From Candidatus Curtissbacteria bacterium RIFCSPLOWO2_02_FULL_40_11 (GTDB taxonomy: Bacteria > Patescibacteriota > Microgenomatia > Curtissbacterales > GWA2-41-24), in assembly GCA_001776505.1 (NCBI GenBank), contig MFBV01000044.1, positions 1 to 38,941 on the forward strand: 38,941 nucleotides of DNA, in the 5' to 3' direction. Below the pieces are notes generated by a model. That model was not told the origin of the DNA. It did no database searches and saw only the letters and a program-made list of their open reading frames with translations. This document shows positions 12,981 to 18,953 of this stretch, in pieces (within the stretch, counting starts at the first letter, position 1; the number at the start of each line of letters is the position of its first letter). The position numbers and the translations under genes are program-made.

Positions 12981-13700
12981 TTACCTTCCTACTTCAGAAA
13001 GAAGTTGAGAAAAATATTTCATTGTTGGAATTATCATTGAATAATTCAACCTTGACGGACCAATAATGCCAAGAAAGCCTTGATGCGTCGGCATTTGATA
13101 GCGAGTAACTACAAAACTGCATGGTTCAAGATAAGGAATACCGAGTTCTTCTCCAAATAAAATTCTGAGCTTTTCTTCGCGTGGAAGTTGATTCATTATC
13201 GGCGCAAGCATCTCTGCTTTGTCTAACATGGAAAGTATTTGTTTGGTTATGTCGATATCGTAAAACTCTGGCATATCTAAAATATTTGCCATGCCTGCCG
13301 AATAAAGATCTCCTACGTCGTCGGTTACAACTGCAAGAGACCTTGTTTGGTCAGCTAAAGCTTTAGCTGTATGTCGGAGAAGTTTTTCATAAGGTTCGTT
13401 TGGTTCGGTTAATTCTTCTTTAATGGCAACTTCATCCTTTAGTGAAAGCGATTTTTCTTCCATTAGTTGGTCGACGTAGAATTTCATGCCAGCAGAAGTT
13501 GGAACACGGCCTGCAGAAGTGTGGAGTTGCTTTAGATAACCCATGTTGGTGAGTTTGACCATTTCGTTTCTGATAGTTGCCGGTGAAACTCCTAGTGAGG
13601 ATTCCTTTTCAATAGTTTCCGAGCCAACAGCTTCTGCGGTTTCGATATATTTTTCGATAATTACCCGAAGTAAATTTTTGTGGCGTTCGGTTAAATCCAT
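12981..13700 (-). CDS. hrcA: Heat-inducible repressor HrcA (short form)
   Basis: YIETAEAVGS, VSPATIRNEM, LHTSAGRVPT, GIIGPSRLNY. Confidence 0.96.
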   Translation of the reverse strand: MDLTERHKNLLRVIIEKYIETAEAVGSETIEKESSLGVSPATIRNEMVKLTNMGYLKQLHTSAGRVPTSAGMKFYVDQLMEEKSLSLKDEVAIKEELTEPNEPYEKLLRHTAKALADQTRSLAVVTDDVGDLYSAGMANILDMPEFYDIDITKQILSMLDKAEMLAPIMNQLPREEKLRILFGEELGIPYLEPCSFVVTRYQMPTHQGFLGIIGPSRLNYSMIIPTMKYFSQLLSEVGR

Positions 13701-13706
13701 AGAGAG

Positions 13707-13744
13707 TTAGCAGACAATGTATCACGAGTGCTAATATTTGTCAA
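13707..13744 (-). promoter_or_regulatory. CIRCE-like operator overlapping the sigma70 promoter of the hrcA operon
   Basis: TTAGCACTC-N10-GTCTGCTAA at 13707-13734; TTGACA (13739-44), 17 nt, TACATT. Confidence 0.85.
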
Positions 13745-13751
13745 GAGGAAA

Positions 13752-14273
13752 TTAAACACCAAAATATTCCAGAGTATAAGTTTGTCTATCAGTGGTTACT
13801 TTTGATTTATAAACCGGAAGGCTTCTTTTTCTTCCCCTTAAGAAAAACTCTTCGGTCATTTTGTAGTCGCTTGGAATAAATAAATCTCTATTTTGTCTCA
13901 TTTCCCCCTTTGTGAACCATCTGACTTCACCCTCAGTTTGAGTTTTGGCATGATCTGTTTCAGCTGTGGTTTCACAAACCCAAATTACAAAATGATTTGT
14001 AATTTTGCCATCAGTTTGTAAATGTTCAACGACGACTCCCTTTATACTAACAAACTTAACGTTTAGTCCGGTTTCTTCGAGAGTTTCTCTAACAATCGCA
14101 TCTTCAATATCTTCTCCAAATTCTATTTTGCCGCCAATCATACTCCAGAAACCTTCGTATGGTGGCTTTGTCCTTTTTATGAATAGCAATTTATCACCAT
14201 ATATAACCGGACTTGCAGCAACGTTTTCAATCTGTAAAGTTTCTTCTTCTTTCACTGGATTTCTCTCAGACAT
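13752..14273 (-). CDS. NUDIX hydrolase
   Basis: Nudix box GGKIEFGEDIEDAIVRETLEETGL. Confidence 0.92.
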   Translation of the reverse strand: MSERNPVKEEETLQIENVAASPVIYGDKLLFIKRTKPPYEGFWSMIGGKIEFGEDIEDAIVRETLEETGLNVKFVSIKGVVVEHLQTDGKITNHFVIWVCETTAETDHAKTQTEGEVRWFTKGEMRQNRDLFIPSDYKMTEEFFLRGRKRSLPVYKSKVTTDRQTYTLEYFGV

Positions 14274-14370: not shown

Positions 14371-14442
14371 ATTTAGCCTTAATTTTTACCGGATTTGTGG
14401 AGCCGACGGCAACTTTCATGCTTGATGTATAATACTTTTGTG

Positions 14443-14937
14443 ATGACAGAAAGACAAGATAAGTCTTCGGCGGTGATAGCTGAAAAAGCGATGATTGAAG
14501 AGATAGGAACCCTTGGCAATTCTCCTCAGAAAAGAGCGATATTCTTAAAAGCCTTTGGACGTTTTAGACAACAAGTAATTGACCTTGATCATGTCGAAGG
14601 TCTTGTTGTCGGTTTTAATAGAAAGGAAGAAACTATAAACGTAGTTCACCTCCTGAAAGATCCTGAGCCTAACCCCGAAGAAAGAATATTTGAGGAAACC
14701 TTTAAAGCAATGTTCACTAATGCTGACCCGTTTGATAGGGATCTTCTTTTAATTTCCACAGCTTACGCAAAATTAGCACCAGCATTCAGGGGTTCAACAG
14801 TTAAAGTTTTTGTATTCACTGCCCCTCTTGATATTAATCTGGAAGTTGCCTACACAAAAAATGTTCGTGATAGTTCCCATCCTATGGTACTTATATCTAA
14901 GAGTAATACTCCTAGATTGCTTTCAGCTGCAGCCTAA
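14443..14937 (+). CDS. Hypothetical protein (ORFan-like)
   Basis: Open frame; likely start MTERQD, 9 nt after TG-TATAAT. Confidence 0.65.
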   Translation: MTERQDKSSAVIAEKAMIEEIGTLGNSPQKRAIFLKAFGRFRQQVIDLDHVEGLVVGFNRKEETINVVHLLKDPEPNPEERIFEETFKAMFTNADPFDRDLLLISTAYAKLAPAFRGSTVKVFVFTAPLDINLEVAYTKNVRDSSHPMVLISKSNTPRLLSAAA

Positions 14938-14940
14938 CTT

Positions 14941-15014
14941 TTATATTTTTAAAACTGCAAGAAAGCCTCCTGCGGTATATCTACTTGTCCAAAGCGGCGC
15001 ATGCGCTTTTTGCC
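14941..15014 (-). pseudogene. lepA: Displaced recoded lepA 3'-end copy
   Basis: GKKRMRRFGQVDIPQEAF(L)AVLKI* with a 1-nt deletion, versus active GKKRMRRFGNIDIPQEAFLAVLKI*. Confidence 0.93.
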
Positions 15015-15380
15015 TTAATGCGAATATAATTTAACTTCGGGCATTGGAAAATGCCGCTTATTGTAGGTAATTAATGTTAAATGAAAATTTGCGGCGGTTG
15101 CTGCAATCAGCATATCTGCAATATCAAGTCTGTACTTCTGTTTAAATGCGCCGGCTTTCTCTGCTATCTCGAAAGTAGCATCGAGGGGAAAGAAAATATT
15201 TTTTAGTTGCTTCACCACTTTTTCTGGCTGCTTGGTTAAACCGGCTCTAACTTCAGATATGGTAATAACGGAACAGTAAAGATTACCGATTTTTGAGAGG
15301 TTCTCTACTAGTCTTACTTCCTTTTCTCGACTCTTAAGAAACCAAATAATGACGTCTGAATCGACTAAATATTTATCCAC
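15015..15380 (-). CDS. vapC: VapC-like PIN-domain toxin
   Basis: YLVDSDVII, SVITISEV, DMLIAATA, LITYNKRHF. Confidence 0.92.
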   Translation of the reverse strand: MDKYLVDSDVIIWFLKSREKEVRLVENLSKIGNLYCSVITISEVRAGLTKQPEKVVKQLKNIFFPLDATFEIAEKAGAFKQKYRLDIADMLIAATAANFHLTLITYNKRHFPMPEVKLYSH

Positions 15381-15651
15381 GAATTTTCTTATTTAGACGA
15401 ACGTTCGTCGAGGCCCAAAGACTTCTTCGCCAAGCAGTCAGCTCCTTGTCCGATTTAAAATCTATACCGCCGGCTTTGGTCCATATTCCTTTTAATTTTT
15501 TCAAGCTTTCTTCCCTTTTAATTCTTGCGATTTTTTCTTTAAGGGCTTCTGCGATCACTTTACTTCTTTCTCTCGGGGAGATGATTTCCCTGAGATCTGC
15601 AGCTAAGTCTTTTGGTAATGTTATATTAATTCTGGAAACATTTGTGCTCAT
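15373..15651 (-). CDS. RHH-type antitoxin
   Basis: RINITLP..L..RSKVIAEAL; overlaps the toxin start. Confidence 0.85.
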   Translation of the reverse strand: MSTNVSRINITLPKDLAADLREIISPRERSKVIAEALKEKIARIKREESLKKLKGIWTKAGGIDFKSDKELTAWRRSLWASTNVRLNKKIRG

Positions 15652-15666
15652 AATCTATACACATTT

Positions 15667-15695
15667 ATAATACATACTTTAAATGCTCTTGTCAA
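15667..15695 (-). promoter_or_regulatory. Sigma70 promoter of the vapBC-like module
   Basis: TTGACA-17 nt-TATTAT with TG directly before the -10 box. Confidence 0.75.
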
Positions 15696-15704
15696 GGTCG
15701 TTTT

Positions 15705-17567
15705 TTAAATCTTTAACACAGCTAGGAACGCCTCTTGTGGTATGTCTATATTACCGAACCGCCTCATTCTTTTTTTACCTTTTTTCTGTTTCTCCAAGAG
15801 CTTTTTCTTGCGGGTGACATCCCCGCCATAGAGTTTTTGGGTGACGTCTTTGCGAAATGCAGGAATTGTTTCTCGGGCAATGATTTTTCCGCCGATTGCA
15901 GCTTGAAGGGGAATAGCTATCTGCTGGCGGGGAATAATGTCTTTTAATTTTTCTACCAGTTTTCTGCCAAATGTTTCGGATTTATCCTTATGTACCACCT
16001 GAGATAACCCTTCGACCTGTTCGTGATTAACTAAAATATCGAGTTTAACCAATTTTGATTCACGATACTCCCCGATTTCGAAATCAAAAGACGCAAAACC
16101 CGAAGTAGCACTTTTTAGCTGGTCATAAAAACCGATTAAAAGTTCGATTAAAGGAATTTCGGCTTCAATTTTTAAAGCGTTACCGATATTTTCAATATGT
16201 TTTTGTTCTCCTCTTTTGTCGTATATAAGATTAGAAATTACACCCATATATTTTTTGGGAGCAAATATTGTAACTATTGCAATTGGTTCTTTTAGAGATC
16301 TTGCCTGAGGATTAAACTGTTGAGCTTTATTAATAATTTCTCCGTCAACTTCAAAATTTACAGAAGGAGAAGTAACTATAATGTCTAAATCGTATTCTCT
16401 TTCCAGTCTCTCTTGAGTAATCTGCGCGTGTAGAAGCCCCAAAAATCCGCAACGGAAACCTTGGCCGAGTGATGTTGATGACTCCGAAGAAAAATTGAGT
16501 GCAGCGTCGTTTAGTTTTAATTTTTCGAGTCCTGTTTTCAATTTTTCGTGGTCATGAGGGTCGGTGGGATAAAAAGATAGGAAAACAACGGGCTTTGCTT
16601 CTTGATATCCGGGTAGAGAATTTGCGGGATTTTCGACGGTTGTTACTGTGTCTCCGACTTTTACGCAAGATAGATTTTTAATGTTTGTAATTATGTAACC
16701 GACTTCTCCATCTGATATTTTTTCAACTTGAGTGGGTTTTGGTGTCAAATAACCAATTTGCAGTACTTCGGCACGGGTTTTTGTTGCCAATAATAATATT
16801 TGATTACCAATTTTGATTTCACCACCAAAGAGCCTGATTGTTGCAATAACTCCTTTATAAGGGTCTAGAGAAGAATCGAATATTAAAGCCTGCAATCCCT
16901 CAGCTAAAGGCCAGGCCTTTTTGCTCACCGATAGACTAGACCCAAGGCCTGGCCTTGTTCTAGGTGATGGAACTTTTTTAATAATTGTTTCTATTACTTC
17001 TTCTACGTTTTCCCCTGTTTTTGCTGAAACTTTAATTATCTCGTCTTCTGAGAAACCCAATGCTTTTATTTCTTCGATGGTTTTTCCAATATTTGCCTGT
17101 GGGCTATCGATTTTATTGATAACTGGAATAATTGTGAGATTAGCGTCAAGCGACAATTTAAAATTGGCGAGTGTTTGTGCTTGAACTCCTTGCGTAGCGT
17201 CAACAATTAAAACTGCTCCTTCAACAGAAGCAAGAGATCTGGATACTTCGTAGGTAAAGTCAACGTGGCCGGGGGTATCGATGAGGTTCAGAATGTAATT
17301 CTGAACCGGTGAATGGTTAATGGTTAATGGTTCGTTGGCTTTTTCGTATTCGCGATGAACTATAAACGATGAACTATAAACCAGTCTTATAGCTTTAAGC
17401 TTAATCGTGATGCCGTATTCGCGTTCGAGTTCTAGACTGTCAAGAAGTTGTTCAGGGTGGCCCTTTTCGACAGCCCCGCAAATTTCCATGATGCGATCGG
17501 CAAGAGTTGATTTGCCGTGATCTATGTGTGCAACAAGACAGAAGTTACGGATGTTAGCTGTTTTCAT
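15705..17567 (-). CDS. lepA: Elongation factor 4 (LepA) with two in-frame repeat insertions
   Basis: AHIDHGKSTLADR, DTPGHVDF, GFRCGFLGLLH, KKLLEKQKKGKKRM. Confidence 0.98.
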   Translation of the reverse strand: MKTANIRNFCLVAHIDHGKSTLADRIMEICGAVEKGHPEQLLDSLELEREYGITIKLKAIRLVYSSSFIVHREYEKANEPLTINHSPVQNYILNLIDTPGHVDFTYEVSRSLASVEGAVLIVDATQGVQAQTLANFKLSLDANLTIIPVINKIDSPQANIGKTIEEIKALGFSEDEIIKVSAKTGENVEEVIETIIKKVPSPRTRPGLGSSLSVSKKAWPLAEGLQALIFDSSLDPYKGVIATIRLFGGEIKIGNQILLLATKTRAEVLQIGYLTPKPTQVEKISDGEVGYIITNIKNLSCVKVGDTVTTVENPANSLPGYQEAKPVVFLSFYPTDPHDHEKLKTGLEKLKLNDAALNFSSESSTSLGQGFRCGFLGLLHAQITQERLEREYDLDIIVTSPSVNFEVDGEIINKAQQFNPQARSLKEPIAIVTIFAPKKYMGVISNLIYDKRGEQKHIENIGNALKIEAEIPLIELLIGFYDQLKSATSGFASFDFEIGEYRESKLVKLDILVNHEQVEGLSQVVHKDKSETFGRKLVEKLKDIIPRQQIAIPLQAAIGGKIIARETIPAFRKDVTQKLYGGDVTRKKKLLEKQKKGKKRMRRFGNIDIPQEAFLAVLKI

Positions 17568-17568
17568 G

Positions 17569-18006
17569 TTATTTTGTTATTGATAAAAATACACTATTTT
17601 TTAAAGTATTTATACTTTGTAAATCTGCAGTGTGCGAAAAATGACCGATGTATGATTGCAGTGATTGATATGGAAGCCGATTTTTCGTAATTCTTTTGAA
17701 GACTCTCTTCTTAGTCTTCGTCTTAACCAACCGATAATGAGGTAAAACCGTGTATCCACAGAAATCAATTCCCCAATAAAATTTTCTTAAGAATATTTTA
17801 TTGGGATGAAGCTCGAGTCTTAGCTCGCTATCTAAAAACTGTTTTAATGTATTAATACATTGGTACAAGTGCTCTCTGTTTGAACCTAGAATTAGAAAAT
17901 CATCCGCGTATCGGAGGTAGTATCTTGTTTTTAGTTTGTGCTTAATAAATTGATCAAGCTAGTTTAAGTATATATTGGTAAATATCTGGCTGGTTAGATT
18001 GCCCAG
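17569..18006 (-). pseudogene. 5'-truncated DGR-type reverse transcriptase with in-frame stop
   Basis: LGNLTSQIFTNIYLN*LDQFIKHKLKTRYYLRYADDFLIL...LHPNK...GIDFCGY; YADD at 17899-17910, TAG at 17959-61; RT similarity lost upstream of about 18006. Confidence 0.9.
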
Positions 18007-18786: not shown

Positions 18787-18953
18787 TTGCTGAAAACCTA
18801 CTTATTCCTGTCATTCCGAACTAGTTTCGGAATCTGAGCTTAGATCCTGAATCCCTTCGATTTCACTCAGGGCAAACAAGTTCAGGATGACAAATGGCTA
18901 GATTGTAACAATAACCTATTTTTAATTAATCATGACTGACAGGTTTTCAGCAA
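18787..18953. mobile_element. MITE-like element with 13-bp TIRs containing nested REP-like palindromes
   Basis: TTGCTGAAAACCT ... AGGTTTTCAGCAA enclosing TGTCATTCCGAAC..GTTCAGGATGACA (18809-18892), which encloses CCCTTCGA..CTCAGGG (18853-72). Confidence 0.65.

Follow-up and report, generated by a model that had tools for sequence, protein, structure and literature searches.

How accessory genes are gained and exchanged in the ultra-small Patescibacteria, whose genomes are compact and hold few recognisable mobile elements, is still a largely open question. It arises in a concrete form at one locus of Candidatus Curtissbacteria bacterium RIFCSPLOWO2_02_FULL_40_11 (assembly GCA_001776505.1, here G000), in contig MFBV01000044.1, of which the whole stretch of 38,941 nucleotides (nt) was analysed and is referred to as the window. 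There, a toxin-antitoxin (TA) gene pair of the vapBC type stands between the end of the intact housekeeping gene lepA and a second, broken copy of that same end. How did the pair come to lie there, and where does the second lepA end come from? In this study, we found that the 0.7-kb TA cassette is 99% identical to that of a sister lineage in which the housekeeping genes are 87% identical, and that the edges of the shared block lie inside the two copies of the gene end, which makes the locus a clean and datable example of gene exchange in this group.

Structure of the lepA-vapBC locus

The lepA gene, coding for elongation factor 4, is intact and specifies 620 amino acids on the reverse strand (15705-17567; Pfam GTP_EFTU, 8e-51, and LepA_C, 9e-47), and its last 24 codons with the stop (15705-15779, reverse strand) are called here the working tail. 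Nine nt 3' of the lepA stop lies a sigma-70-like promoter, TTGACA-17-TATTAT (15667-15695, reverse strand), which matches 11 of the 12 consensus positions and is kept upstream of the vapB homologues at all seven aligned loci. It is followed by a vapB-like antitoxin gene of 92 codons (15373-15651, reverse strand), which overlaps the start of vapC by 8 nt, and by vapC itself (15015-15380, reverse strand), encoding a PIN-domain toxin of 121 amino acids (Pfam PF01850, E 2.3e-19, 70.6 bits against a cut-off of 23.6). The NCBIfam VapC models also match the toxin, but below their cut-offs, and the ribbon-helix-helix matches of the antitoxin are weak and likewise sub-cut-off (Pfam RHH_5, E 0.007; an NCBIfam NikR-type model, E 7e-4). 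Each vapC homologue examined has a vapB homologue upstream. Like known VapBC systems of type II, the pair comprises a small upstream antitoxin gene overlapping a PIN-domain toxin gene under its own promoter, with the difference that the DNA-binding fold of the antitoxin rests here on sub-threshold matches. Thus, judged from its sequence, the pair appears to be an ordinary type II TA system with its own promoter, unremarkable in itself. The insert holds vapB and vapC only, and no recombinase gene was found either within it or adjoining it.

The vapC stop codon occupies 15015-15017, and at the very next base, 15014, begins a relic of the last 24 lepA codons (14941-15014, reverse strand). This copy of 74 nt keeps 22 amino acids, has lost 1 nt in a Leu codon, and terminates in a TAA of its own (14941-14943), 3 nt from the stop of a convergent open reading frame (ORF; 14395-14937). 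The preliminary description of this DNA had listed the working lepA end, promoter, antitoxin and PIN toxin in this order, followed at the toxin stop by a largely recoded copy of the lepA end, and all these parts were confirmed at their positions. It had also remarked that no hairpin site remains at this junction, in agreement with our finding of no copy of the GC-rich hairpin motif, described below, in 14900-15800. A 931-nt region of the locus is single-copy in the 0.94-Mb genome.

Divergence of the relic

Leaving the deleted base aside, the relic differs from the working tail at 21 of the 71 aligned bases of the 24 sense codons, and 18 of the 24 codons differ, yet this amounts to only two amino-acid changes (N>Q and I>V). 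The longest in-register run identical in both is 5 nt. If the relic were a local tandem duplicate of the lepA tail which decayed in place, with vapBC inserted between the copies, a direct repeat in the same orientation adjoining the insert would be expected, as is seen. Decay in place, however, leaves a different trace. When 21 random substitutions were put on the working tail, with 100,000 trials for each of three settings of the transition bias, not one trial gave two or fewer amino-acid changes without a stop, and the mean was ~13 changes. Relics of different lineages, furthermore, also differ from one another mostly at synonymous positions, and we therefore give decay in place hardly any credence. 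Since 21 differences brought about only two amino-acid changes, each copy must have served as a lepA end in its own lineage while the two diverged. The relic was thus formerly the functional tail of a separately evolving lineage rather than a duplicate decayed in place, and it turned into a pseudogene only recently. Twenty public sequencing runs, from groundwater and soil communities, contain the stretch; among the contigs of four that contain it in part, mostly pieces of 60-560 nt, none spanned the cassette, and neither an empty site nor a circle junction was seen. One of these contigs matched 14965-15014 at ~86% and continued into lepA coding sequence, which shows only that similar working tails exist; these contigs were not used as evidence.

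Identity block shared with a sister lineage

A metagenome contig of a sister lineage, L064 (1623 nt), carries lepA tail, vapB, vapC, relic and hrcA in this order, and its vapB and vapC proteins are 100% and 98% identical, respectively, to those of G000 (tblastn). Alignment of the two loci revealed a block at 14992-15722 (reverse strand) that is 98.8% identical, with 9 mismatches in 731 nt, and that contains the last six lepA codons, the stop, the spacer, the promoter, vapB, vapC and the first 23 nt of the relic. Outside the block, identity falls to 75-80% in the flanks. On the lepA side, 695 of 703 positions are identical in 15015-15722 (98.9%), whereas only 95 of 118 (80.5%) are so in lepA just upstream (15723-15840); 23 mismatches lie in the latter segment, the last of them at 15723, and 8 in the following 708 nt. 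On the relic side, one mismatch lies at 15013 and the next at 14991, and 12 differences are found in the 51 nt from 14941 to 14991. The relic as a whole (14941-15014) is 83.8% identical (62/74) and the hrcA backbone 87.3% (453/519). At the backbone divergence, the probability of 8 or fewer differences in 703 positions is ~1e-30.

The sharp identity block, together with its diverged flanks, suggests a recent exchange of the cassette with breakpoints inside both tail copies. The pattern fits replacement of the cargo, or of its allele, in a slot that would already have been two-tailed, the left crossover lying in the working tail and the right one in the relic. The candidate zone for the right-hand crossover is the 5' patch of the relic (14992-15014, reverse strand; 23 nt), which is nearly unchanged among the relics of G000, L064 and G001, a genome of the same genus. 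This patch has a single mismatch between G000 and L064, and its last 20 nt recur in the working tail of L064 itself, which makes it a plausible crossover patch. At the other edge, the block includes only 15705-15722 of the working tail, that is, the last six codons with the stop; codons -24 to -7 differ at the backbone level, and the two working tails differ throughout codons -17 to -7.

With only 18 nt of the working tail inside the block, the latest transfer would have taken place without a whole replacement tail. This bears on the proposal in the preliminary description that the TA module and a replacement lepA tail arrived together: the horizontal mobility of the cassette and the nature of the relic as a displaced functional tail hold good, but a complete tail did not travel along in that transfer. 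A crossover in the lepA body, which had been suggested as something to be looked for, was not locatable, since among the 41 genomes compared (40 relatives and G000) the nearest lepA genes are 70-75% identical in protein and only 64-70% in DNA. Codon-aligned sliding windows against 22 lepA genes of the family gave no clearly closer relative in any window.

Recurrence of the junction in other lineages

The junction by which the vapC stop is joined to a lepA codon at about -24 to -31 was found in G000, G001 (L094), L064, G009 (contig C49) and L066. In G001, whose hrcA is 86.8% identical, the last 94 nt of vapC and the stop are identical to those of G000 at 97 of 97 positions, whereas the relics differ at 13 of the 69 bases compared; the contig breaks off within vapC, and a HAD hydrolase gene follows the relic in place of the convergent ORF. 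In G009, which belongs to another genus, lepA is followed on one contig by a relic of 10 codons and then by vapB, which has the conserved promoter in front and a frameshift, and a second contig opens with the end of vapC, followed directly by an intact 26-codon relic. L066, a metagenome contig with a 69% identical vapC, has the same build, with a relic that reaches codon -31 and has a 9-nt deletion. The five relics differ mutually mostly by synonymous changes (15 synonymous and 2 non-synonymous codons between G009 and L066), which indicates that each came from a different working tail. What lies downstream of the relic also varies with the lineage, being the convergent ORF in G000, the HAD hydrolase gene in G001, hrcA directly in L064, and a winged helix-turn-helix (wHTH) gene in G009. 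The 5' ends of the relics look decayed, with Gly>Asp in L064, 9-nt deletions in L066 and in G041, and heavy degradation in G022, whereas their 3' parts remain coding-like.

An order-wide search yielded no further close vapC homologues (2 of 34 genomes), and a scan of species genomes gave only a 55% homologue from Woesebacteria and distant ones. We also considered whether the lepA-linked cassettes form a single VapC clade, but dropped this idea since there was no signal for it, the pairwise identities among the four groups all being 61-70%; the L064 rows were left out of this comparison, and the tblastn figure was used for L064.

The lepA end in the family

The last 38 residues of LepA were searched against the whole genomes of the 32 family members, and extra copies were counted at E 4e-4 or better. 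The lepA tail was found in 30 of the 32 genomes, and the G000 relic was recovered at E 9e-8. Extra tails occur in at least seven of the 32, namely G000, G009, G018, G020, G022, G041 and G001, the last with a relic only, its lepA being unassembled. By tblastn at the level of the locus, copies of 8-10 codons were found in two more genomes (G006 and G017), as well as a second relic in G009 and a third in G018. Beyond this family, a lepA relic of 30 codons lies behind a PKD-domain gene in G030, which belongs to another one. The cargo between working tail and relic is not confined to vapBC, which is found in G000, G001 and G009: hicB-hicA takes this place in G041, a NUDIX gene in G022, and four genes in G018, while only a short GC-rich motif lies between the two in G009, G006, G017 and G020. 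In G041, which represents another genus, the relic behind hicB-hicA starts at about the same codon as the vapBC relics. The contents of the whole lepA-hrcA interval are similarly diverse, with vapBC, an orphan ORF and NUDIX in G000, vapBC and HAD in G001, vapBC only in L064, hicBA and an ORF in G041, and ORF140, vapBC, NTPase and NUDIX in G011. Across the family, the start codons of the relics span -10 to -58, and this variation in length (10-58 codons) speaks against a single, fixed position of the crossover. These arrangements mark the lepA end as a family-wide hotspot, probably of recombination, with a slot that has been reused, and the vapBC case is not a one-off.

The GC-rich motif, with a consensus of about CCTGAGCGAAGTCGAAGG, has 14 copies in the G000 genome, including those at 18854-18868 and 32971-32985 of the window. 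It lies exactly between the lepA stop and a relic of 8-15 codons in G009 and G006, and variants of it do so in G017 and G020 (sites at L039 1345-1376, L024 2356-2386, L013 3310-3340 and L023 3247-3286). The junction of motif and Q-E-A-F-L recurs across genera with synonymously different relics, and looks site-specific.

G018 shows a further arrangement, a chimeric ORF of 97 amino acids (L040 2461-2754) in which the first 39 residues of a NUDIX hydrolase are joined to the last 58 residues of LepA at a shared G-G-K-I. The first 127 nt of the chimeric tail are identical to the working tail, and its last 19 codons differ at 10 synonymous positions. The third relic of this genome, of 10 codons, lies 2 kb further on, and its stop overlaps the -35 box of a ribbon-helix-helix gene. 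The lepA genes of G008, G010, G018 and G019 (L019, L028, L016 and L029) contain in-frame insertions, 10-21 residues long, in which Gly, Ala, Ser and Arg are abundant, and these sit at a conserved A-A-I-G-G-K-I, which is the fusion site of the G018 chimera.

Cassettes at other gene ends

The same vapBC family is also found away from the lepA tail. G011 has a homologous vapBC (64%) 0.6 kb downstream of lepA, flanked on either side by the first 12 codons of an NTPase_I-T gene. With a spacing of 762 nt, these repeats of 44 nt are 82% identical, and their differences are synonymous; the promoter of the gene is retained at the upstream copy of the head, and the downstream copy begins in a TAATG overlap with the vapC stop. 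In L065, vapBC (65%) is enclosed by two copies of a PIG-L gene head, 48 nt long and 98% identical, and the TAATG overlap is seen here as well. Homology of the cassette among these contexts runs from the -35 box to the vapC C-terminus, which varies by 2-5 residues, and no conserved terminal repeats were found among the cassette contexts aligned. A possible lepA-end remnant on the left border of the cassettes in L065 and G011 was dropped from consideration, since the alignment fits the pre-promoter spacer of G009 equally.

Other gene pairs with repeats were seen as well. In G012 (L053 1036-1931), a different antitoxin/PIN pair lies directly behind tRNA-Pro(TGG), and a perfect 52-nt repeat of the tRNA 3' part starts 1 nt past the toxin stop. 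Such a pair is also located directly behind tRNA-Pro(TGG) in G023 (L052 1108-1936), where the repeat of the tRNA 3' part, again 1 nt past the toxin stop, is 58 nt long and 74% identical, with compensatory changes in the stem. In G000 itself, a two-gene pair on contig C9 (9014-9629), assigned to the RelE/ParE type of TA by eye only, has 37-nt direct repeats (95%) and lies just downstream of a tyrosine-recombinase gene. Finally, past the stop of a 76%-identical vapC fragment on L095 (120-180), there is a short ORF that starts with M-K-L-K-D-K-V-A-V-V-T-G-A and then breaks off; it resembles the head of a short-chain dehydrogenase gene, and may be a further stranded gene head.

These contexts raise the alternative of an undescribed insertion process that duplicates 40-100 nt of its target, for example by widely staggered nicks or by template switching at gene ends, the recoding being acquired later through recombination with relatives. 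Such a process would account for cassettes of ~0.6-1.3 kb with direct repeats of 37-106 nt at many unrelated sites, which include lepA, NTPase, PIG-L, tRNA-Pro, two other loci of G018 and the RelE-like pair on contig C9, and for two repeats that are still 98-100% identical (L065 and L053). However, no enzyme, terminal repeat or target motif was found for it, the cassette ends are fuzzy by several bases, and the repeat lengths vary widely. Moreover, insertion-duplication or homology-anchored joins yield every one of these features too, and we consider a dedicated duplicating process quite improbable.

Origin and exchange of the cassette

Considering all these observations, we favour, with guarded confidence, a homology-driven insertion followed by homologous exchange at a lepA-hrcA recombination hotspot. 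In the founding event, an insertion would have set the cargo behind a lepA end supplied by the donor and stranded the last 24-31 codons of the recipient beyond it, either by a homology-anchored join with one illegitimate end or by a Campbell-type insertion-duplication of a lepA-tail fragment. The outcome would be a two-tail slot with working tail, cargo and relic tail in a row. Homology arms would then be available in the form of the long lepA body and the two short tails, and through them DNA taken up from relatives could swap or install cargo without a recombinase in the cassette. In G000, the present vapBC cassette or its current allele would have arrived recently, with one crossover in the working tail at ~15722/15723, where codons -7 and -6 meet, and the other between 14992 and 15013. 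The 3' part of the relic would derive from a functional lepA tail of the recipient's or of a relative's lineage, an origin that explains its near-purely synonymous recoding, one frameshift having been gained since. The addictive nature of vapBC may have aided its persistence as a minimal cargo.

What the sequences show directly is the build of the locus, the coding-type divergence of the relic, the sharp identity block, and the return of junction and slot in relatives; how the DNA recombined, that it entered by transformation, and in which order the events took place are inferred from these patterns. Homologous exchange of this kind would explain the variable relic lengths, the decayed 5' as against the coding-like 3' relic parts and the varied cargo families, as well as the absence of a recombinase and of terminal repeats, and the breakpoints inside the tails. 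Homology-based uptake of DNA, which had been raised in the preliminary description, is a reasonable mechanism in view of an insert without recombinase, a junction without hairpin, and the presence of a ComEC-family gene in G000 (PF03772, E 9e-47). Natural competence has been shown in cultivated Patescibacteria, namely Saccharibacteria, as stated in passages of PMC10633639, and homologous-recombination genes are reported in many Patescibacteria in corresponding passages of PMC12455944.

Several points weigh against this reading. RecA-type recombination works poorly on arms that are only 18-75 nt long and 80-85% identical. Without the parental empty-site sequence, microhomology at the original junction is unscorable, and native and foreign tails are indistinguishable. 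The identity block rests on one short contig, L064, which has several N in vapC and is possibly a mixed-strain assembly, and G001 (L094) independently supports only its right edge. The TAATG precision in G011 and L065 is not predicted by random illegitimate joins unless it was selected. In addition, a precise conserved junction with lineage-specific relics is also expected from a site-specific system; four tyrosine-recombinase genes (PF00589) are present in G000, on other contigs and with no shown link to the cassette; and the tRNA-Pro TA cassettes with their 52-58-nt repeats of the tRNA 3' part have a classic integrase signature.

The last three of these points count in favour of the main rival explanation, that of a minimal integrative element, or of the final remnant of a decayed one preserved by TA addiction. 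A tyrosine recombinase acting in trans would have inserted the cassette at an att site in the lepA tail, and the element would carry a mimic of the lepA end, as do e14 and phage 21 at icd. This explanation would gain further from the identical cores common to working tail and relic in L064 (20 nt), G022 (32 nt) and G018 (127 nt), and prophage integration into lepA in Salmonella and duplication of the 3' end at icd are on record, according to passages of PMC3603311. However, no recombinase lies in or beside the insert, the tails of G000 share no in-register run longer than 5 nt, the relic starts are spread over codons -10 to -58 in the family, and one cassette family occupies three unrelated targets, that is, the lepA tail, the NTPase head and the PIG-L head. 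With a fixed crossover, moreover, G000 and L064 should have near-identical working tails between the crossover and the stop, and the working tail of L064 should equal the G000 relic at codons -17 to -7; neither is the case. On the latter ground, the single-crossover (circle) model with one shared element, site-specific or Campbell-type, was rejected in its simple form. On balance, we hold an integrative element to be unlikely, and retain homologous exchange between tail copies as the preferred reading.

A bolder extension of homologous exchange, which we put forward only tentatively and regard as rather doubtful, is that the two-tail slot acts as a recombinase-free, self-propagating device. 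Such a slot would install itself by transformation in the genome of any relative, its relic pairing in register with the tail of the recipient so that the essential gene stays unbroken even where intergenic space is all but absent, and TA pairs would be favoured as loss-resistant cargo. The same principle, applied to gene heads and tRNA ends, might then lie behind much of the accessory-gene traffic of Patescibacteria.

Relation to known systems

The closest parallel in arrangement is provided by the minimal mobile elements of Neisseria (Saunders and Snyder 2002; Snyder et al. 2007), as they are defined in a passage of PMC3082526. Like these, the present locus is a site between two conserved genes, here lepA and hrcA, occupied by strain-specific whole-gene cassettes without mobility genes, and in Neisseria the exchange takes place by homologous recombination after DNA uptake. 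The sharp block with breakpoints in homologous tail copies would be compatible with homologous recombination in the flanks. The locus differs from the Neisseria elements, however, in that a single flanking gene supplies both inner arms, as short copies of its end (18-75 nt) of which one is dead, and in that the latest breakpoints lie inside these copies and not in long flanking genes. Furthermore, the host is here a Patescibacterium with a competence inferred only.

The founding event resembles homology-facilitated illegitimate recombination, which was reportedly described by de Vries and Wackernagel in 2002 and by Prudhomme et al. in 2002. A long anchor, lepA, is combined with a non-homologous join of the vapC stop to codon ~-24, and foreign DNA is added beside a conserved gene in a probably competent bacterium. 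Unlike in the classic events, which usually delete recipient DNA, the recipient DNA is here kept as a duplicate. The term is used in the sense in which a passage of PMC3240628 defines it.

Two further systems share features with the locus, which has several tails in a row in G018 and G009 (three in each) and recombinase-less cargo between att-like repeats. Both features recall the tandem accretion of integrative elements in streptococci and the cis-mobilizable elements (CIMEs), with the difference that no cognate integrase or conserved att core was identified here. In the case of e14 and phage 21 at icd, the gene receives a recoded end from the incoming DNA, and its original end survives as a relic at the far junction. 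The lepA locus is alike in both respects, but its insert is 0.7 kb only and has no integrase, G000 has no identical core, and the crossover positions vary among relatives. Insertion within the 3' end of a housekeeping gene is common to our locus, to e14 and phage 21 at icd, and to the Salmonella lepA prophage, as described in passages of PMC3603311.

In the literature on repeat-flanked TA cassettes and on lepA integration sites, we found no description of a two-tail lepA slot, the Salmonella prophage site being the only lepA site encountered. Novel features are a 99% block with sharp boundaries, the recurrence of a single junction whose relics differ from lineage to lineage, the use of one slot by two TA families, and the presence of the same cassette between duplicated gene heads elsewhere. 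If relic gene ends are indeed reusable homology arms, they would provide a marker for recent gene traffic in metagenome-assembled genomes, as well as a testable recombinase-free route of insertion beside essential genes. For annotators, short pseudogene-like tails behind lepA, tRNAs and other core genes would be worth recording as marks of hotspots and not as noise.

Neighbouring genes

The variable islet has a conserved right-hand border (12981-14273), formed by a NUDIX hydrolase gene (13752-14273, reverse strand) and hrcA (12981-13700, reverse strand), both identified from the ORF list and Pfam. Between this border and the relic lies the convergent orphan ORF (14395-14937, forward strand), which is listed with 180 amino acids, although it might also start at a later ATG near 14446, which has a -10 box of its own. 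It is present in one of the 32 family genomes, and no Pfam or NCBIfam family matched it. On the other side of lepA, an ORF of 99 amino acids (17569-17868, reverse strand) ends 2 nt before the lepA start; an apparent likeness to a reverse-transcriptase fragment was dropped, since no Pfam or NCBIfam family matched it.

By alignment to the NTPase head of G011, an orphan head of an NTPase_I-T gene, consisting of the start codon and ~14 codons, was recognised at 14374-14419 (reverse strand), and the genome has no match to PF01931, that is, no NTPase_I-T body. This head is a further scar within the lepA-hrcA islet, and the locus is a patchwork of such scars. The head sits between the orphan ORF and the NUDIX gene and has a promoter-like site upstream. 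The 44-nt segment stranded here is the same as that duplicated around vapBC in G011.

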